Program-made: the position numbers and the translations under genes
Notes under the pieces: model-generated
Database searches by the model: none
Seen by the model: only the letters and a program-made list of their open reading frames with translations
What the model was told of the DNA's origin: nothing
Assembly: GCA_049523135.1 (NCBI GenBank)
Contig: JBEKNE010000001.1
Span: 542,809 to 606,808, forward strand
Origin: Candidatus Microgenomates bacterium
GTDB lineage: Bacteria > Patescibacteriota > Microgenomatia > UBA8517
Length of the DNA: 64,000 bases
Direction: 5' to 3'
Shown here: positions 20,266 to 63,085 of the stretch, piece after piece
Position numbering within the stretch: position 1 is the stretch's first letter
Layout: each line of letters begins with the position of its first letter

Positions 20266-24140
<3,875 letters not shown>

Positions 24141-37213: not shown

Positions 37214-37300
37214 AAGTTAAAATAACTCCAGATATCAAGAGTGCGGGGAAGGACTTAGCCTGATGATCCGCCGACAACCTGGAAGTAAAGGCTTCGAAAG

Positions 37301-38386
37301 GTGCCAAAGCTAAAAAACGATATGAGTAAAAACATCTTCTTAGATAGTTTTAAAAATTATACCGTAGAATCCGTAACTAGTGGTCATCCGGATAAAATCT
37401 GCGATCAGGTTTCCGATGCAATTCTTGATGAATGTTTAAGACAAGACCCCAAAAGCCGTGTTGCTATAGAGAGTTTCGGAAGTCACGGACTTTTTGTCAT
37501 CGGTGGAGAAGTCACAACACGTGCCAAATTCGATGCCGCCAAAATCGCCACAAAAGTTTACAAGGATACAGGGCACACCGACAAACTAAAAATCATTACA
37601 AATGTAGTCAAACAGTCTCCCGATATTGCCTTGGGGGTTGATACCGGTGGAGCAGGGGACCAGGGAATTATGTATGGGTTTGCCACGGATGAAACTCCGG
37701 AATATTTGCCACGGGCAGTAGCCCTGGTTCATAAACTAACACGCGGATTGGAAGATCTGCGAAGAAGCAAAAAGATTAAGTGGTTACTGCCCGACGGCAA
37801 AGCCCAGATAACAATGCAAAATGGAAAAATTAAAACAGTTTTGGTTTCGACTCAACACAAAAAGGGAATTCCCATAGAAACCATCCGACGCGAAATCACA
37901 AATAAATTAATTAAAAGGGTGGTGGGGGATACAAAAGGTATCAATATTTTGGTCAATCCTACGGGTAGATTTGAAGTCGGAGGATTTATGGGAGATACGG
38001 GATTAACCGGCAGAAAAATTATGGTTGACACATATGGTGGGCTTGTCCCTCACGGCGGTGGATGTTTTTCCGGCAAAGATCCGACAAAGGTAGATAGAAG
38101 CGGCGCCTACATGTGCAGATTTGTTGCCAAAAATTTGGTTGCTAAAGGACTTGGAAAAAGTGTTCTTGTATCGGTAGCCTATGCAATCGGAAAAGCCGAT
38201 CCTTTAATGATTAATGCCGAAAATGAAAAAGGTAAAGATTTAACGCTTTATGTTAAAAAACATTACGATTTCAGACCCTTGGCAATTATCGAAAAACTAG
38301 ATTTGAGAAGACCGATTTATCAAGCAACCGCTTCATATGGCCACTTTGGCCGTAAAGGTTTTCCTTGGGAAGAAATTGAAAACTAA
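37301..38386 (+). CDS. metK: S-adenosylmethionine synthetase
   Basis: GHPDKICDQVSDAILD and HGGGCFSGKDPTKVDRSGAY are the MAT signatures. Confidence 0.85.
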   Translation: MPKLKNDMSKNIFLDSFKNYTVESVTSGHPDKICDQVSDAILDECLRQDPKSRVAIESFGSHGLFVIGGEVTTRAKFDAAKIATKVYKDTGHTDKLKIITNVVKQSPDIALGVDTGGAGDQGIMYGFATDETPEYLPRAVALVHKLTRGLEDLRRSKKIKWLLPDGKAQITMQNGKIKTVLVSTQHKKGIPIETIRREITNKLIKRVVGDTKGINILVNPTGRFEVGGFMGDTGLTGRKIMVDTYGGLVPHGGGCFSGKDPTKVDRSGAYMCRFVAKNLVAKGLGKSVLVSVAYAIGKADPLMINAENEKGKDLTLYVKKHYDFRPLAIIEKLDLRRPIYQATASYGHFGRKGFPWEEIEN

Positions 38387-38610: not shown

Positions 38611-40827
38611 TTACTTTCCCCCTTTTCCATGGAAGGCTTCATGAACATCACGAAGTTGTTTATTTGTAACATGTGTATAAATCTGTGTTGTTGAAATATT
38701 TTTGTGTCCCAGCATTTCCTGAACGCTTCTTATATCAGCCCCTGCCATAAGGAGATCGGTTGCAAAAGAATTATGACTTACTATTCCATCAGTTATTAAA
38801 TTTTGAGCAGGGGAGACTGTAAAATCAAAAACACTATATCTATTAAACGGTAACTTTTTGATTTTTTTGACTTTTAACCATTTCAAATTTTCTGCATTAT
38901 AAATATTTTTAAGTAGTTTAAATTCTTTACCGTTATAGCCAAACTTATCGATTTGCCTGATAAATTTTGCAACCGTCGATTTCATAGGCACCATGTCATT
39001 TAAGTTTCTATTCGATTTGATATTTTCATTATGAGAAAGAGCGTATCTAAAACCAGTTCTTCCGTTCTTTTCCAAATTCTTAAAAATCGAGTTTAAGATA
39101 CCCTGTACCGGAATTTTTTCATCTTCCCAAATAGAAGAATCTCTTAATGTTCCTTTTTTAAGTGTTGGAATTAGTTTAATAAATGATCTTTGATCCTCTT
39201 TACCAATCACTTGTAACGTATAAAAATTATGACGAAAATATTTTCCTTGCGGAAGCTTTACTATCCTGTCTCGCACCATAAGATGTGCATCAATCCCAAG
39301 TCTAAGTAACAACATTTGAACATCTTTTAACAAATCTTTCGAAGATGAAAAAAATCTTGGAGCGTCATTGGAATTTCCTTCCGCATCATAAAAACCAGCA
39401 ATAAATCCCATTATTTCATCTCTGGTAGCATTCATTATCTGATGGGGAACACGTTTCAGATTTAAATGCACACCCATCCCTAAACCAAGCAAAAATTCTA
39501 CAAACTGTTCAGAATAATAGTTAAGTCTATATGAATTCGTTTCGGGATTTTTTTCGATTTTAGCATTACCTTTAAATTTTTCTATAATAATTCTTTGATA
39601 AAATTCAAGGTTTTTTCTATCCTTATCATAAATTATTACACCCCGTCTTACTTTACTTACAACTCCATCTCCCAAAATATAACCAACAAGCCTTGCCAAT
39701 GCCGGATCCATAATTCTAATTCCGGGAAAATCAACTTTTTTAACTCCGACAATATAATTACCGACCTTCAAATTGGATATTTTAATTTCTCTAATTTCGC
39801 TGTTTGATAATGTAAAGACTCTATGTGTGCCAGAACATACCAATTCATATCCGTCCGCCCAAACCGAATATAAATCCGATATGTGATACTCCTTCCCAAT
39901 TACTTTCGAATCTACAACTCTGCCGGTTTTAAAATCGACACCAAATATTTCGTCTTTTTCTTCATAGTAGGCGTCCCTCGCAGATTGTATTTCATTTCCG
40001 AGGAAGATCCTTGTGTCAGGATGTAAACAGTGCCTCATCACATGAGGTGTAACTTCAATCGGCAGTTTCATTTTATGAGAATATTTTTTTACCATTCTCT
40101 GAACCGATCGGGGAGTTAGACGCATTTTTTCACCGCTTGTTGTCGGATCAACCTTGCCTTTGTGATGTATAAAAAGCGGTTTGTAGTGATCATCGCGTTC
40201 ACTGAGATATTTGATAAGCCAATCGGCCGCCCGCTGTGATAGAAACACAACCCTGGCCTTTCCCCCTTTTCCGATTATTCCAAACTCCCGCCTGTCCAAA
40301 TCAATTTTGTCACGGTCCAGCTTACAAAGTTCCGAAACACGAAGTCCAGTAGAAAAAAGCACTTCCAAAATTGCCTTATCTCTCTTTCCCTGAATAGAAT
40401 CAAGTGAGGGTGCATTAAGAAGTCTGTCCACCTGTTCGCCGTTTAAAAATTTAACAGACCTCTCTTCAATTTTCGGAAGTTCAATTTTATCAGGAGCCAT
40501 TACCGCATAATCGTTTTTGAGAAGCCATTTTAGAAAACTTCTCATTGCAATAACGTGATAGCTTTGAGTCCGCCTGCCCATTAGGGCTTTTCCTTCTCCG
40601 GGAAGGTTTGAAAGATAAACTCTAAAACTTCTGATAACTTCAGGGTTAATATCTTTCAGGTCTTCCCGAATACCCTGTGAACTCATCCATTTAATAAAAC
40701 GCGTCAGATAATGTCGATAGTTTCTGATCGTTAGGGGAGAGCAGCCTTTTTCAACTTGAAGATATTCCAAAAACTGGTCTACTTTTTTGGCTATCTCACT
40801 TTGATTGATTGGTGCAGTATCAACCAT
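38611..40827 (-). CDS. XerC/XerD-family tyrosine recombinase interrupted in-frame by an intein
   Basis: N-terminal core-binding domain ([26 protein letters not shown]); catalytic box PHVMRH|[intein]|[34 protein letters not shown]. The exteins reconstitute the canonical HxxRHSFAT...GH..I.TTQIYTH. Confidence 0.8.
38770..40029 (-). mobile_element. Intein (420 aa) with LAGLIDADG homing endonuclease inside the tyrosine recombinase active site
   Basis: Block [14 protein letters not shown]; block B SGTHRVFT; LAGLIDADG motifs [12 protein letters not shown] and [12 protein letters not shown]; block [25 protein letters not shown] followed by a +1 Ser. Boundaries were computed from codon positions (Cys 40029-40027, Asn 38772-38770). 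Confidence 0.75.
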
Positions 40828-40879
40828 TTATAAATTGATATTACATTGGAGAACTTAACGTGTCAATGAGATTGTGCGA

Positions 40880-41620
40880 CTAACCAATTACTTTTTCTAT
40901 TGCATTCAGCAATGGATACATTGCCTGAAGTTCATCAGGAAATCTCTTAATTTCAACCAACCGCTTGTGTCGAAAGTCGGATTTAGTTTTACCTTGAAGA
41001 ACATTGATAACAAGGCTGTTAGTGATATTTTCAAGAGCGGATTTTACAAACCTAATGTCATCATCTATAAATACGATCCAAGGAGCTTTGGCGGCAAGTC
41101 TTGCAAGGCTATCGGTTTTGAAAAGTACGCCATCTATTTTTGCATTGCTATCATCACGGATCAAAATATTTTCAGTTCTAAATAATTTTGGTAGTTCGCG
41201 GGGAAACCATTTGTTGACCGTACAGTCTTTAAGTCCAGGATTTCGAGAGGTAAGAACAAAATTTCTTTCAGGTCCGTAGTACCGAATTGTCTTTTCAACC
41301 AATGGTTTTATATAAAGGTATCTGTGAGCTGATAATAATATATCCTGTTTATACCATCCGTCTTCGGCGTGTTTAATAGACTCTTCATCAAGTCCGCTCT
41401 TGGTAGCAAGTCTAGTTAAATATCCGCGTTCATCAAGTTCAACAGGACTCGCATATATGCCGGTTTTTTCTGTAAAATTTTCGAAAACAGCTTTTGCAGA
41501 ATTTGCCAAAATTCCGTCAATGTCATAAACAAAAACGGTTTGCCGGTTTTGCAAAACATTTTCAAATAATTCTTTGTCACCGGTAAATAAATTTTCAAGA
41601 CGGTAAGGACATCTTTCCAT
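40880..41620 (-). CDS. HAD-superfamily hydrolase, 5'(3')-deoxyribonucleotidase-like
   Basis: HAD motif I VYDIDGILANS and a C-terminal VFIDDD. Confidence 0.45.
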   Translation of the reverse strand: MERCPYRLENLFTGDKELFENVLQNRQTVFVYDIDGILANSAKAVFENFTEKTGIYASPVELDERGYLTRLATKSGLDEESIKHAEDGWYKQDILLSAHRYLYIKPLVEKTIRYYGPERNFVLTSRNPGLKDCTVNKWFPRELPKLFRTENILIRDDSNAKIDGVLFKTDSLARLAAKAPWIVFIDDDIRFVKSALENITNSLVINVLQGKTKSDFRHKRLVEIKRFPDELQAMYPLLNAIEKVIG

Positions 41621-41668
41621 GAATTGTCCTTTTTAACACAAAAAAGCATTAAAATCCATACCAGCCTC

Positions 41669-41700
41669 AAAAACGGCCTTACTAAATCGATTTTAAGGCC
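41669..41700 (-). terminator. Rho-independent terminator (minus strand) downstream of the homing endonuclease gene
   Basis: On the minus strand, GGCCTTA-aaatcgatttag-TAAGGCC followed by GTTTTT. Confidence 0.5.
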
Positions 41701-41986
41701 TGTCCAACTCAAAAGACGATACATTATTCATCTTAATAATTCCGTGTTTTCGGAAAAAACCAGTACTTACAAAAAACAGGGGAGTAACAAAAAAGGGTTA
41801 AAAATTCGAATTTCGGTCTTTATTCGGAAAGGGGTTTTTAGAGATATTTTGGAAATAGAGTATATAAATAAAAAAACGCGACATCAAAACAATTAAAAAT
41901 ACGGGAACCAGGTGAAACAATAGAAAAACACGTCTCCCTCTCACAGCTTTAATCAACGTCGCAAAAGTTACATTGTACGAACAATA

Positions 41987-42484
41987 TTAATTCCACTTAA
42001 AGTCCTTCTCTTTACTCTTATATGACTTCATCTCCATTCGTATCTCTTGAAGTCTTTCAATGTTATCTCTATTCCACTCAACTTTGACAAATCCTTTCTT
42101 ACCCCTCTCAAGATTGACTCCTTTCTTCTTGTTTCTAGCGATTATCTCCACTGCTTCCTTCCATAAATTAAAGTCTTTTGCTTTTTTCCCATACAATTTA
42201 TGGAGACTGAAAAAAGGAATAATTTTATTCAGTAGATCATCAGTATTCTGAACTTGATAACGTACAAAAGTGCTTGAATAACTTATATCTCCACAGGCCA
42301 ACCCATCCTTAATCATTTTCAGAAGGTCGGCATCATCAGCCCTAAGCACGATAGCAAAGACAGCATGCCATCTAAAATACATGGGCGAGTTTATACGATT
42401 TTTCTTTAAATCCTGTCTAAAATTCAAGGAGAAGCAACCTTCACCGTCAACCAAACCAGAAACATAATCAAGGGGTAGGATCAT
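41987..42484 (-). CDS. Free-standing LAGLIDADG homing endonuclease (single-motif, I-CreI-like)
   Basis: MILPLDYVSGLVDGEGCFSL carries one LAGLIDADG motif; 165 aa; basic C-terminus. Confidence 0.75.
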   Translation of the reverse strand: MILPLDYVSGLVDGEGCFSLNFRQDLKKNRINSPMYFRWHAVFAIVLRADDADLLKMIKDGLACGDISYSSTFVRYQVQNTDDLLNKIIPFFSLHKLYGKKAKDFNLWKEAVEIIARNKKKGVNLERGKKGFVKVEWNRDNIERLQEIRMEMKSYKSKEKDFKWN

Positions 42485-42638
42485 ATAATTTAATTATATT
42501 AGAAAAATATATACTTATCCACAATGTATGCATAAAGGGAAGCAAAACATTACTACCAAGGCTGACAACTATATCAAACTATATGAATCCTCCGGAACTG
42601 GGCTTCGGTGTTTCTTCGAGCGGCGCTTTGTGTCGCAA

Positions 42639-42670
42639 TTCGTGAAAAGACCCATAATATTTCGTGAAAA
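42639..42670. promoter_or_regulatory. Direct repeat TTCGTGAAAA x2 (22-nt spacing) in the non-coding region upstream of the homing endonuclease
   Basis: TTCGTGAAAAG at 42639-42649 and TTCGTGAAAA at 42661-42670, within a 300-nt GC-enriched stretch. Confidence 0.3.
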
Positions 42671-42786
42671 CCACCCTCCATTCCGGCAATAACATATTGT
42701 AATTATAGGGTATATCATGCCCTCCTCCCCTGCCTGTGTGTCTGTCCAAAAAAATGAAAATTGATAATTATTAATTGAAAATTGTT

Positions 42787-43557
42787 TCAACCACCCCAAT
42801 GGGTTGCAAAAAACATTGCAATGAAGATAATAGATCCGACAATAACGTGTTCCCTGACGGTCGAGGAAAAAAGCCGCTCTTCAAGCTTGGCCTGACCCAA
42901 GCCTAATAGCATATAAAAAGAGGCTGTCAAAAATAAAGAGCCCGTGGTTACGGAAATCGGCCAAAAGTATAGAGCTAAAGCGACCTCAGCGGTAATAAGA
43001 GAAGAGACTCCGGAAAGTATGAAAAGTTCCTTAGAAAAACCTGTATCCAATAGCATTGACCAAAATCCCTGAAGGTAAAGCGGGAAGGTAATGATAAAGG
43101 TTAGAGGCACCAAAACATACATCTCAGATTTTAATGATATTAAAGCGTCGAAAACAAGGAAAGAAGTCAGAAGGGTGAGTACAAAACCTACTCCCCTAGC
43201 CGCCCGCAAAAGGGCGATAGTTCTAACAGAAGCAACCGAATAAATATTTGCGGTTAAACACAAAACGTAAATTCCTACACCATAAAAAATAACAATCGGG
43301 ATAGTTGCAAAAATATTGGCGGGGAGAAGGAACCAGAAAAATCCGACGCCAAGTGTAAAAATAACCGGCAGTGCCAATGTCAAAAGTGTCATGTTCCTGC
43401 CCAGGCTTTCGAAAAGGGCCCAGCCGAAAAAAACCGCAGTTAAAATTCCCAATATTCCGATAGACCAAAGTCTGTTCTGATCGTTCAAAAACTGGACACC
43501 GACAAAACCAAGACAAAGAAGAAGAGAAATTATTACAAAACGCCGGCGTTTACTCAT
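42787..43557 (-). CDS. Hypothetical polytopic membrane protein (about 7 TM)
   Basis: Hydrophobic segments throughout; no catalytic motif recognised. Confidence 0.45.
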   Translation of the reverse strand: MSKRRRFVIISLLLCLGFVGVQFLNDQNRLWSIGILGILTAVFFGWALFESLGRNMTLLTLALPVIFTLGVGFFWFLLPANIFATIPIVIFYGVGIYVLCLTANIYSVASVRTIALLRAARGVGFVLTLLTSFLVFDALISLKSEMYVLVPLTFIITFPLYLQGFWSMLLDTGFSKELFILSGVSSLITAEVALALYFWPISVTTGSLFLTASFYMLLGLGQAKLEERLFSSTVREHVIVGSIIFIAMFFATHWGG

Positions 43558-60280: not shown

Positions 60281-63085
60281 TTACTTTGTGTGTTTTGTTT
60301 CTCTTCCAAAAAACTTAATCCTGTCCCCTCTGAAGCGAAGAGGAACGCTTTTTAAAGGACCGTTTCTATGTTTGGCAATATCAAGCATAATATTTTCAGG
60401 GTTTTCATCATCTTCACGCCAGAGAAACATGACAACGTCCGAATCTTGTTCAATCCCACCCGAGTCTCTGAGATCAGCAAGCTGCGGCTTCTTCCCCCCT
60501 CTAGTTTCAACAGCCCTAGAAAGCTGAGAAAGAGCCAAAACTGGAATTTTAAGCTCCCTTGCCAGATTTTTTAAGCCTTGAGAAATTTCCGATACCTCCT
60601 GAACTCGATTTTCCAGGTTTCTGGACCTTGCAAGCTGTAGATAGTCTACGACTAGGAGATCAAGCCCGTTTTCTACCTGAAGACGACGTGCTTTCGTGCG
60701 CATTTCAAGGATAGAAAGGGCAGGAGTATCATCAATAAATAGAGGTGCCTCAGCGAGAATACCCATTGCATCACTCAGCTTTGAAAAATCATCCTCCGAA
60801 AGTTTTCCAGTCTTCAGTTTCCACGCATCAATATCGGCTTGTGCAACCAAAAGCCTGTCTATAAGCTCTTCCCTACTCATTTCTAGCGAGAAAAATCCAA
60901 CCGGGCGTTTCAGCTCAACTGCAACATACTGAGCGATATTCATTGCTAGGGAGGTGTTATGAACCACAATATCATTTGCAATGAAGTTGTGGGTTTTATC
61001 AATCGCCAAATCGTATACACGCTTTACTCCTACCCGTCTAATGCTTACTATTTTGTCCCAATAAAGATCACTTTCCGCCAAATACAATAGTTTTCTTGAG
61101 TTTATTGCTAAAGCAACTTCCTTAAGAGTCTCTCTTCGTAACTGTCTTTTATTAACACGGATATTGTGCGTCAAGTTTCGACCCATTTTCCTATAAACCT
61201 CTCTCCATGTCATTTCCCCCTTCTCTTTGATAACCAATTTCCAAGCATCCATTGGTATCGTATCTTTAGACCATGTTTTTGGGATATTTACAGTTTTTGC
61301 CAATTTCTCTAGTTTTCTTATTTTGTCCTCTTTACCAAAAATACCTATTTCCTTAATAAACATTAGAATGTTTGTCGCACCCATAATCTCCAATTCAAAC
61401 GATTTTTTAAAACCCCCTTTATATCTAACTTTCTTCTCTCTGAGTCTGGCCAAAATACCGAACCTTAAGAGAAGGTGTTTTACTCCTTCTGCTAATTTGT
61501 ACGATGAAGAAGAAAAACTGATTCTACCCACTCCCCTAGATTTTGAGGGCATTGCGCTTCCTTCACATGCAAAAAGTCTATTAAGAAATAATCTCAGATT
61601 TTCCTTATTTAATTCAAAAACTTCTCTCGGTATTTCTTTTTCTATCGACAGTTTTCCCATTACACCTAGGGAGGTTAACCAATTGGAAACAGGGTTTTCC
61701 CTATCTATCCTTTCTGTATCTTCTCCTAAATATTCACTCAACTTTTTATAAGTAGATACACCAGGCAGAGAAACACCCGAAACCCACGCATCTACAAGTG
61801 CAGGACTTACACTAAGGATTAAAGCTAATTTTGTATGAGTTAAGTGGTTTTCTGTCATTTTTTTGCTGATTCTCTTGGCAAATTTAATTCGTAAATCTTT
61901 TCTATACGGATCTTTCTTTATTACAGTAACTGTAGGGGTTCTAAACCTAATCTTGCTTTGCTTTACCAACCTGGTGGTTACATCACCAAATTTTTCAACT
62001 GAATCACAAAAATCAGATAAAATAATATTGTTGCTATTAGTAAATCTTGGAGAAGAAGATGTCACACCCCCATCTCCTAATAGATAAGCCAGGATTTTTA
62101 CTCTCCAACTGTCCCAAACTCTATAGCCAAAATATTCCATCTTTCTTGGAATAGCTATTCTTACCCCAACTTTAAGTTCTTCTACTTTTTTCCAACCGTT
62201 AATTGTCAGTAATGGATGGACGGCCGTTGCTTCAAGTTTATTACCTAAGGCAGTCTTAATCTCATAAACAGGCTTTTTACCATCATCCACAAAGGCTGAG
62301 GGGTCAATTCCTCCATGAATCTTAAAATTACTATCCAATGTTGAGATTTTAACTTCCTTATGAGAAACAATATCTGATATTGTTTGCCTTCTACCCGTAC
62401 TAGAATCAATTACTAACGTATCTCCTGCCACACACTTTCCAACTCCAGGGCGCGCGGCTAAAACCAAGAGGTTTGATTGCTGCATTCCGGCCAAAGCATC
62501 ATCCAAATCAGGGAAGCCAGTCGGGACACCCCTCATGCCAGCTCCAGATTTATGCAACTCATCAAGTCTGTCAAAACTTTCTGCCAAGGTATCCCGAACT
62601 GAAGTAAAAGCCTTAGTTGAAGATCTCTGACTTAAGGAAAAAATTTCACTTTCGGCTTTATCAAGAGCCTCGCTTGCTCCCAATCCTTCATCCATCGAAA
62701 CTTCAACAAGTCGGGATGCTGCCGACATCAAAGATCTTTTCGTGGCAGTATCCTTAACAATTCTTCCGTAATGCTCAACGTGAGCCGCAGTCGGAACTTT
62801 ATTAGCAAGGTCTGCTAAAAACGACGAACTCCCGATACTTTTAAGAGCTTTCATCTTCTTAAGCCTCTCCGTAACAGTCAAAACATCAATTGGGATACGC
62901 TCTTCATAAAGATCAAGGCATGCGTTATAAATATCTCTGAGGCGTTCATCGTAAAAATCTTCAGGAAGCAAAAATTCTGCAACAGCAATAACCGCGTCCT
63001 TATCAATAAGCATCGCTCCAAGAACACTTTCTTCTGCTTCCTGGGAATGAGGTGGGACTCTAAGTTGGTTTGATTGTACTGCCAT
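60281..63085 (-). CDS. dnaB: Replicative DNA helicase DnaB, with an in-frame intein in the P-loop
   Basis: N-terminal domain (PHSQEAEESVLGAMLID); Walker A split as LVLAARPGVGK|[intein]|TSLAMNIAQ; C-terminal RecA-like motifs (LLVVDYLQL, SQLSR..E). Confidence 0.9.
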   Translation of the reverse strand: MAVQSNQLRVPPHSQEAEESVLGAMLIDKDAVIAVAEFLLPEDFYDERLRDIYNACLDLYEERIPIDVLTVTERLKKMKALKSIGSSSFLADLANKVPTAAHVEHYGRIVKDTATKRSLMSAASRLVEVSMDEGLGASEALDKAESEIFSLSQRSSTKAFTSVRDTLAESFDRLDELHKSGAGMRGVPTGFPDLDDALAGMQQSNLLVLAARPGVGKCVAGDTLVIDSSTGRRQTISDIVSHKEVKISTLDSNFKIHGGIDPSAFVDDGKKPVYEIKTALGNKLEATAVHPLLTINGWKKVEELKVGVRIAIPRKMEYFGYRVWDSWRVKILAYLLGDGGVTSSSPRFTNSNNIILSDFCDSVEKFGDVTTRLVKQSKIRFRTPTVTVIKKDPYRKDLRIKFAKRISKKMTENHLTHTKLALILSVSPALVDAWVSGVSLPGVSTYKKLSEYLGEDTERIDRENPVSNWLTSLGVMGKLSIEKEIPREVFELNKENLRLFLNRLFACEGSAMPSKSRGVGRISFSSSSYKLAEGVKHLLLRFGILARLREKKVRYKGGFKKSFELEIMGATNILMFIKEIGIFGKEDKIRKLEKLAKTVNIPKTWSKDTIPMDAWKLVIKEKGEMTWREVYRKMGRNLTHNIRVNKRQLRRETLKEVALAINSRKLLYLAESDLYWDKIVSIRRVGVKRVYDLAIDKTHNFIANDIVVHNTSLAMNIAQYVAVELKRPVGFFSLEMSREELIDRLLVAQADIDAWKLKTGKLSEDDFSKLSDAMGILAEAPLFIDDTPALSILEMRTKARRLQVENGLDLLVVDYLQLARSRNLENRVQEVSEISQGLKNLARELKIPVLALSQLSRAVETRGGKKPQLADLRDSGGIEQDSDVVMFLWREDDENPENIMLDIAKHRNGPLKSVPLRFRGDRIKFFGRETKHTK
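60956..62434 (-). mobile_element. DnaB intein (493 aa) with LAGLIDADG homing endonuclease
   Basis: Block A CVAGDTLVIDSS; block B ATAVHPLLT; LAGLIDADG motifs LAYLLGDGGVTS and LNRLFACEGS; block F/G RVYDLAIDKTHNFIANDIVVHN followed by a +1 Thr. Boundaries computed from codon positions. Confidence 0.8.

Follow-up and report, generated by a model that had tools for sequence, protein, structure and literature searches.

A free-standing LAGLIDADG homing endonuclease cassette in a conserved non-coding locus next to xerC in Microgenomates, and its proposed link to a dif-like palindrome

Homing endonucleases persist by targeting sequences that their hosts cannot change, such as rRNA genes and the active sites of essential enzymes. 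The homodimeric LAGLIDADG enzymes I-CreI and I-TnaI (PF00961), whose family is expected to act on palindromic or pseudo-palindromic targets of ~22 bp, sit in group I introns of rRNA genes. Other homing endonuclease genes, such as seg and mob of phage T4, are free-standing and spread by intron-less homing. Mobile DNA is also found at dif, where integrative mobile elements exploiting Xer (IMEX), such as CTX-phi, VGJ-phi, TLC-phi and the gonococcal island, integrate by Xer recombination and have a dif-like site on either side. Sites of the dif type lie in non-coding DNA and have a variable central hexamer between two conserved inverted repeats; in the single-recombinase systems xerS-difSL (streptococci, lactococci) and xerH-difH (epsilon-proteobacteria) the site adjoins the recombinase gene (PMC5357621, PMC2731167). 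Here we describe a LAGLIDADG gene in a 64,000-nt window (the whole stretch of DNA analysed; positions 542,809 to 606,808 of contig JBEKNE010000001.1, GenBank assembly GCA_049523135.1, from a Candidatus Microgenomates bacterium), using coordinates that count from the first letter of the window. The reading we favour, and hold to be somewhat probable, is that the gene forms a free-standing cassette of the homodimer type in a conserved DUF5656-xerC locus, where it has replaced a variable core and is tied to a xer-linked, dif-like palindrome.

The endonuclease gene occupies positions 41987–42484 on the minus strand and encodes 165 aa with a single LAGLIDADG_1 motif (Pfam, E = 2.3e-18, residues 9–112). 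This motif, GLVDGEG, contains the catalytic Glu, with G14-E15-G16 invariant in 12 homologs, and aligns with the motifs of I-SmaMI and aHE15; sequence matches in the Protein Data Bank (PDB) were to I-SmaMI, I-OnuI and I-TnaI. An AlphaFold2 (AF2) model with a predicted local distance difference test (pLDDT) score of 79 has the alpha-beta-beta-alpha-beta-beta-alpha order (helices H5–15, H49–62 and H81–94; strands E16–25, E36–48, E66–69 and E73–78), and Foldseek gave TMq values of 0.71–0.74 to the I-OnuI halves and to homodimeric I-TnaI. In its ~165-aa chain, single motif, catalytic acidic residue and predicted fold the protein is like I-CreI and I-TnaI, but its gene lies in non-coding DNA with no intron, and adjoins a candidate palindromic target rather than lying inside it. 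Purifying selection on the open reading frame (ORF) is evident from pN values of 0.14–0.34 versus pS values of 0.69–0.89, with synonymous sites saturated.

On the DUF5656 side the gene is flanked by 302 nt (42485–42786), up to the stop codon of a gene for a DUF5656 membrane protein, and on the other side by 366 nt (41621–41986), up to the start of a gene for a 246-aa protein without a Pfam match, after which comes an intein-containing xerC. Both flanks contain nothing but short overlapping ORFs. A first-pass annotation made from the sequence had described a free-standing endonuclease in locally GC-enriched non-coding DNA with its own terminator, and the ORF, its non-coding flanks and its free-standing character are borne out. 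The GC enrichment is present but modest (0.43–0.47 at 42525–42750 versus 0.31–0.37 in adjacent DNA and ~0.40 in the window), and the direct repeat TTCGTGAAAA is exact at 42639–42648 and 42661–42670, spaced 22 nt start to start, these being its only two exact copies in the 64 kb. The hairpin annotated as a terminator at 41669–41700 also exists (41675–41700; GGCCTTA / TAAGGCC with a 12-nt loop, then GTTTTTG on the minus strand), and is not listed by a simple terminator scan, its loop being longer than 8 nt. Orthologous loci of other species keep both the repeat and the hairpin, which are therefore more than chance features.

Relatives were found by scanning genome and metagenome collections with the conserved blocks of the locus, and by inspection downstream of DUF5656 homologs; the loci used for comparison carry L-numbers (L001, L005 and so on). 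DUF5656 has more than 1,300 homologs, which implies that several hundred such loci exist. A genome-wide 17-mer scan returned mostly chance matches, the real ones being L030, L069, L086 and L124 only, and a scan of viral contigs returned chance matches only. Endonuclease homologs at 52–79% identity share the gene order yebC, DUF5656, gap, LAGLIDADG, gap, an optional variable gene and xerC, with gaps of similar length and blocks that are identical in all. The same locus without the LAGLIDADG ORF was found in at least 10 distinct lineages, including a Gottesmanbacteria metagenome-assembled genome (MAG) and a Woesebacteria MAG contig that ends inside the locus, and with the ORF in six. In every Microgenomates locus examined that has DUF5656, the host locus lies at the same syntenic position; it measures ~670–890 nt with no called gene in ORF-less alleles and ~1.1–1.2 kb in ORF-bearing ones, and by synteny and alignment it spans 41621–42786 (minus strand) in the window, from DUF5656 to the next gene, interrupted there by the endonuclease cassette. 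The uninterrupted homolog that the annotation had suggested looking for thus exists, and it is secure that the LAGLIDADG cassette is free-standing and sits beside xerC in a conserved non-coding locus that otherwise has no ORF, with documented empty alleles. The TTCGTGAAAA repeat, the GC-rich blocks and the "terminator" are parts of this host locus, because they are present in ORF-less alleles, and the proposed regulatory leader and terminator of the endonuclease gene are not its own.

The borders of the cassette are the same in 5/5 full-length ORF-bearing alleles, TGTGGATAA(G/C)TA on one side and (G/T)TCG(T/C)ACAAT..TTTTGCGAC on the other, and between them the cassette takes the place of a variable stretch, the core, of about 150 nt (147–199 nt). 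No ORF trace was detected in the variable core of ORF-less alleles (best tblastn E 0.16; short chance matches by blastn), and a decayed ORF was rejected as the source of this core on the same tblastn result. The arrangement is like that of the T4 seg and mob genes, which also lie between conserved sequences, are present or absent among relatives and replace the DNA between homology arms. However, those genes encode GIY-YIG or HNH enzymes of a phage and cut a neighbouring gene, whereas here a LAGLIDADG gene lies on a bacterial chromosome beside a recombinase site.

These alleles also bear on whether the 1.2 kb might be a group I or other self-splicing intron, or the remnant of one, carrying the endonuclease ORF, as the first-pass annotation had considered. 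Single-motif LAGLIDADG genes are often intron-borne, and genomes of the candidate phyla radiation (CPR) are rich in rRNA and tRNA introns (PMC11270868, PMC13011429). At gathering thresholds, an Rfam 15 scan of the window returned only a tRNA and a SAM riboswitch elsewhere, and at E ≤ 10 neither the 41400–43000 region nor four ORF-less loci matched any family, including group I (Intron_gpI) and group II introns, RNase P, 6S and tmRNA; ARAGORN detected no tRNA or tmRNA in the 41400–43000 region. Neither a catalytic core nor an interrupted host gene was found: the borders are the stop codon of DUF5656 and the start codon of the next gene, and ORF-less alleles keep every flanking block plus ~150 nt of unrelated sequence instead of contiguous exons. 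The intron explanation is effectively refuted, and we give it a vanishingly small chance. The same host group carries a heavy LAGLIDADG load in rRNA gene insertions and in inteins of replication and recombination genes (PMC11270868); those lie within rRNA or protein genes and are removed by splicing or processing, whereas the window cassette needs no splicing.

The downstream border of the cassette is a dif-like palindrome of 24–28 bp (block E; 41958–41981, minus strand), TTCGTACAA-TGTAAC-TTTTGCGAC, which starts 6 nt past the endonuclease stop codon and occurs in full only once in the window, in non-coding DNA. Its arms are conserved and its centre is variable. In ORF-less alleles it reads GTCG(T/C)ACAA-N6-TTTTGCGAC, and 16 loci give GTCG(T/C)ACAA-T(A/G)(A/T)(T/A)AC-TTTTGCGAC, with inverted arms GTCGYA(C/A)AA around a variable 6-bp centre, so that the architecture of dif (two conserved inverted arms of ~11 bp and a centre of 6–8 bp) is found in all 16. 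The outer left arm is GTCG in 11/11 ORF-less alleles, while among the five full-length ORF-bearing alleles it is TTCG in four and GTCT in one. The neighbouring recombinase is of the Xer type (E. coli XerD, 1a0p, E = 6e-43, and a match to archaeal XerA), and xerC lies 0.3–1.1 kb downstream of the palindrome in every locus that extends far enough. In its inverted repeats, variable hexamer, non-coding position and xer linkage the palindrome is thus like xerS-difSL and xerH-difH, but its sequence is unrelated to difSL and difH.

A half-site with the sequence of the left arm, GTCGCACAAT, recurs at xerC itself. In the window an exact match (40871–40880, minus strand) lies 4 nt upstream of the xerC promoter (-35 TTGACA at 40861–40866, -10 TAATAT at 40838–40843, xerC ATG at 40827), and in L005, L086, L135, L136, L139, L140 and L146 the half-site lies 1–4 nt upstream of TTGACA-N16-18-TAnAnT before xerC. 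It is therefore found at the -35 element in 8 lineages (the window and seven others), with or without the endonuclease, and recurs at every xerC promoter examined. At this position GTCGCACAAT must act as DNA, and endonuclease-free genomes must also encode a protein recognising it. In L135 two tandem copies (6483 and 6552), 69 bp apart, lie upstream of xerC, the second alone having a TTGACA -35 element after it.

Distant homologs of the endonuclease (47–50% identity), found in other contexts in L168, L169, L171 and L165, also abut a related palindrome. For example, L168 and L169 (47–49% identity) have GTCGCACAA-N6-(T/A)TGTGCGTC just upstream of the ORF, with xerC directly after it and the rest of the locus absent, and in L171 GTGCGCACAT-TATATC-TTTTGCGCAC begins right after the stop codon. 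In L165, AGTGCGCACAA-TGTTTA-TTTTGCGACAT lies 14 nt past the stop codon (full site AGTGCGCACAATGTTTATTTTGCGACAT); an additional G in its left arm is essentially all that sets it apart from the window-type site. This site matches the dif of Shewanella oneidensis (ACTGCGCACAATGTATATTATGTTAAAT) at 22/28 positions, with all of 100 shuffles of the contig reaching at most 20; published dif sequences were taken from PMC2731167 and PMC3025954. Past its palindrome, L171 additionally contains, at 1199–1260, ATCTTTTGCGCAC followed 14 nt on by a perfect 13-bp inverted copy, with three GTGCGCA arms in 60 nt.

The cassette is patchily distributed. On a tree of DUF5656 the six loci with the ORF are interspersed with loci that lack it, with L001 sister to L137 and L005 sister to L136, and identities are incongruent: the window and L001 share 67% in the host protein and 76% in the endonuclease, while L001 and L005 share 69% and 52%, respectively. 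Furthermore, L001 (with the ORF) and L137 (without it) are 96–100% identical over ~300 nt starting at about position 6 of the palindrome (L001 6504–6800 against about 1890–2185 of L137, minus strand), and only ~78% identical in the adjacent DUF5656 gene. This sharp-bordered identity points to a recent exchange with its right-hand crossover inside the palindrome block. Directly beyond the last conserved hairpin, identity falls to 30–50%, the genes downstream being different. The empty sites, patchy distribution, incongruent identities and recombination border are indirect signs of homing into ORF-less alleles, and the endonuclease looks active and mobile, judging by its intact and purifying-selected ORF, modelled LAGLIDADG fold, catalytic Glu and patchy distribution.

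Some of the same observations could be read as domestication, with the LAGLIDADG protein having ceased to be a selfish nuclease and being inherited vertically as a factor that binds DNA or RNA, such as a regulator or accessory factor of the Xer/palindrome module. Purifying selection is long-term, with saturated synonymous sites, the same position is kept in lineages that share only 52% protein identity, and the gene adjoins the palindrome and xerC in several arrangements. In contrast, the motif keeps its catalytic Glu without exception, the locus and xerC persist in most sampled relatives although the gene is missing from them, the distribution is patchy with endonuclease identities that do not track those of the host, and the right border bears the signs of recent exchange, all of which make domestication improbable.

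We infer that the endonuclease family is tied to the dif-like palindrome, which probably serves as Xer core site and homing target alike, and consider this well supported. In the mechanism we propose, the linked Xer recombinase would use the palindrome as its core (dif-like) site, whose two like arms would be expected if a single recombinase acts, by analogy with xerS-difSL and xerH-difH. The endonuclease dimer would cut in or beside the palindrome of ORF-less alleles, and repair from an ORF-bearing allele would copy the cassette in, with TGTGGATAA and the palindrome serving as homology arms. Together with the new upstream flank, the substitution that every full-length ORF-bearing allele carries in its outer left arm (G-to-T, in one variant at arm position 4) would then protect that allele from re-cleavage. 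As in IMEX, a mobile element would be positioned at dif, but here it is a homing endonuclease beside one full site, and its insertion would be double-strand-break repair, unlike that of IMEX.

Several points weigh against this proposal. LAGLIDADG genes normally split their target, and here the palindrome is almost intact beside the endonuclease gene. Immunity by a single outer-arm change, like Xer binding, cleavage and recombination at the palindrome, is proposed from sequence, and an ordinary transcription factor would equally account for the half-site at the xerC promoter. Any transfers must be old, since ORF-bearing alleles are saturated at synonymous sites relative to one another, repeated loss could give part of the patchy distribution, and the account leaves ~600 bp of conserved blocks in the host locus without an explanation. 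The window-type palindrome matches canonical dif at 16–19 of 28 positions, which is within chance, and does not contain TTATGTnAAnT, the conserved arm for XerD; only in the L165 variant are the left arm and centre similar to canonical dif at its XerC arm. Classical dif also sits at a skew turning point, and the locus shows no switch in skew at third codon positions (GC3 skew), which is ~-0.08 on the plus strand regardless of gene orientation, with no change point near 42 kb and no turning point in the 64 kb. The skew argument is weak, however, because some related Microgenomates have monotonic cumulative GC skew, their origins not being known (PMC7143001), and the constant GC3 skew of the window is compatible with this.

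If the proposal of a cassette tied to a dif-like palindrome is correct, the homing target would be of a new kind, a short essential DNA site (for chromosome-dimer resolution) instead of a gene, and homing would be a second route, besides Xer-dependent IMEX, by which mobile DNA exploits dif. The palindrome is a first candidate Xer core site of Microgenomates, in which GC skew places origin and terminus poorly, and if it is the target, the enzyme would be a small meganuclease that works as a homodimer on a defined palindromic site. In the literature, we found no paper linking homing endonucleases to dif sites, and nothing on DUF5656, a large RNA of Microgenomates or this locus.

The host locus itself, ~0.7 kb of non-coding DNA, is very unusual in these compact genomes, is conserved more strongly than the neighbouring proteins and belongs to no Rfam family. 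Its features are given here on the minus strand, in the direction of the endonuclease gene. The 5' blocks AGGGGAGGAGGG and CCCTATAATTA (42700–42730 by alignment) contain an invariant GGGGAG and TAATTA, and are followed by GTTTTCACGAA, present twice at 22 nt (42632–42670), whose second copy runs into TTGCGAC, a copy of the right arm of the palindrome; the GTTTTCACGAA block is invariant in all orthologous loci at a spacing of 21–22 nt. Alignments also delimit CGAAGAAACACCGAAG, with a CGAA repeat at 11 nt, and TCATATAGTTTGATATAGTT, with a TGATATAG-like repeat at 10 nt (42567–42618). The left border of the replaced segment, TGTGGATAA (42515–42523), is invariant in 15/16 loci and is a perfect DnaA-box 9-mer (TTATCCACA on the plus strand), the sole perfect match in the 64 kb. 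Beyond the cassette, a T-rich tract, TTTTTTATTTA, is conserved in all alleles (41870–41963 region), and the 3' blocks TCCGAATAAAGACCGAAA, with a CCGAA repeat at 11 nt, and ACTCCCCTG, the inverted partner of GGGGAG, align at 41777–41828. Three conserved 3' hairpins follow (41675–41755 overall), at 41740–41755, at 41713–41734 with a subsequent U run, and at 41675–41700, the last of which lies partly in an invariant block, GACAGGCCTTAAAATCGATT (41685–41704), that is unique in the window. The CCGAA blocks (42603–42618 and 41811–41828) recall the GAAC-N7-GAAC SOS (LexA) box of alpha-proteobacteria, which we take to be a resemblance only; they read GAAG-N7-GAAG and GAAT-N7-GAAA in the window, and GAAG/GAAC-N7-GAAC in most orthologs.

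Such conservation could reflect RNA rather than DNA, with the host locus a gene for a structured non-coding RNA of ~700 nt on the endonuclease strand, conserved in Microgenomates and perhaps working with DUF5656, the palindrome forming an RNA hairpin and the endonuclease gene being lodged, like its counterparts in CPR rRNA genes, in a variable domain that the RNA can do without. The locus always follows DUF5656, and its blocks, 9–20 nt long, are invariant across species in which synonymous sites are saturated. In the three 3' hairpins 80% of cells are paired versus 35–51% for slid partners; 13/500 shuffles reach this pairing and 8/500 exceed the pair types, a modest covariation, while G.U outnumbers A.C by 54 to 20 on the sense strand and one pair of hairpin 41740–41755 varies between C-G, G-C, U-A, G-U and U-G. 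Moreover, CCUAUAAU can pair with AUUAU(A/G)GG as U-A, C-G or U.G, and the palindromic loops UAAUUA and AAAUCGAUUU could make kissing contacts.

In contrast, no Rfam family matched the window region or the four ORF-less loci, and the flanks and variable core fold like shuffled sequence: single-sequence folding of both flanks on both strands was no better than shuffles (z +0.15 to +0.90), and the variable core of 10 ORF-less copies had a mean fold z of 0.0 sense and -0.36 antisense. RNAalifold's best region comprised 5 pairs at -1.4 kcal/mol, and an exhaustive stem search between conserved blocks detected no helix supported by at least two compensatory pairs. A long-range closing helix, GGGGAG/CUCCCC, was rejected, as it is invariant and its seventh position pairs in ~7/15 loci versus ~5 by chance, which is not significant. 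No conserved promoter precedes the locus, and promoter and terminator scans of ORF-less loci gave no consistent signals. The GTCGCACAAT arm also lies upstream of the xerC -35 element, in DNA presumably untranscribed from that promoter, many direct repeats are spaced at 10, 11 and 22 nt, the helical period of DNA, and a cassette of ~530–580 nt with its own promoter replaces the centre with flank conservation retained. The evidence for a large structured RNA is weak, and we regard this explanation as unlikely, if still worth weighing. The Rfam and folding checks that the annotation had proposed thus speak against an intron or known RNA and yield no convincing conserved structure; the flanks are nevertheless not the plain untranslated regions of neighbouring genes that it had held out as the alternative, as their blocks are invariant across species.

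The conserved blocks were also weighed as a replication origin, or a combined origin and terminus, comprising a DnaA box, iteron-like 22-bp repeats, an AT-rich tract, dif and xerC. The DnaA-box 9-mer is perfect and invariant, GTTTTCACG, present twice with a 22-bp period, matches the box at 7/9 positions, the T-rich tract is conserved, and gyrB, gyrA and dnaB lie within the same 64 kb. The sign of the skew is constant across the window, and related Microgenomates with monotonic cumulative GC skew have origins that are not known (PMC7143001). However, a cluster of DnaA boxes beside an AT-rich unwinding element was not found: the T-rich tract accompanies one good box only, at an unenriched density of 3.8 versus 2.8 boxes per kb. 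No dnaA or rep gene adjoins the locus at any locus examined, the centre tolerates a 400-bp insertion and the skew gives nothing positive. An origin at the locus is not supported, and it is very improbable that this is the replication control region of monotonic-skew Microgenomates, where replication would start and end at one place parasitised by a homing endonuclease.

Expression signals of the cassette were predicted on the same strand. A promoter scan gave a putative -35 TGGATA inside host block TGTGGATAA, which is thereby reused, and a -10 TATAAT after 17 nt (42493–42521; 10/12 matches); the ATG follows 9 nt after TATAAT, and the predicted mRNA is nearly leaderless. The layout is the same in L001 and L162, while L005 and L009 have their own TTGACC-17-TATACT inside the cassette. 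Downstream, a long imperfect hairpin (GCGACGUUGAUUAAA...UUUAAUUGUUUUGAUGUCGC) followed by U7 at 41870–41963, taken from the minimum free energy fold and the sequence, is the likely terminator of the endonuclease transcript.

The gene between the locus and xerC varies by lineage, being a 246–256-aa gene without a Pfam match, another unmatched gene, or none, and this spot seems to be an insertion hot spot. Such genes lie at 40880–41620 in the window, in L136 and L138, at about 1674–1964 in L140 and at 2229–3254 in L162; judged by first residues only and unconfirmed, the L140 ORF (MTRVYYIYLMMNKSNTVIYTGITNN) is GIY-YIG-like and the L136/L138 ORF NUDIX-like. In L163 (1–845, 2355–2786) yebC comes after a gene for a reverse transcriptase (RVT_1), the locus is shortened and separated from DUF5656 by an ORF of 143 aa, and the LAGLIDADG gene, close to the end of the contig, is called with a length of only 132 aa.

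Homing-endonuclease parasites are also unusually abundant in the replication and recombination genes of this lineage. The window xerC (38611–40827, minus strand; 738 aa) carries an intein with a LAGLIDADG_3 domain, which its orthologs in L001–L004 have as well, while xerC is intein-free (312–319 aa) in L005, L009, L086, L155, L158 and L160. Inteins are likewise carried by gyrB (20880–24140, plus strand) and dnaB (60281–63085, minus strand) in the window, the dnaB intein having a LAGLIDADG_3 domain, as does one in gyrA of L005 (10340–12495). Elsewhere in the window, the SAM riboswitch at 37229–37326 (plus strand) scored 46.2 bits in Rfam versus a gathering score of 44.4, and lies just upstream of the S-adenosylmethionine synthetase gene (37301–38386).

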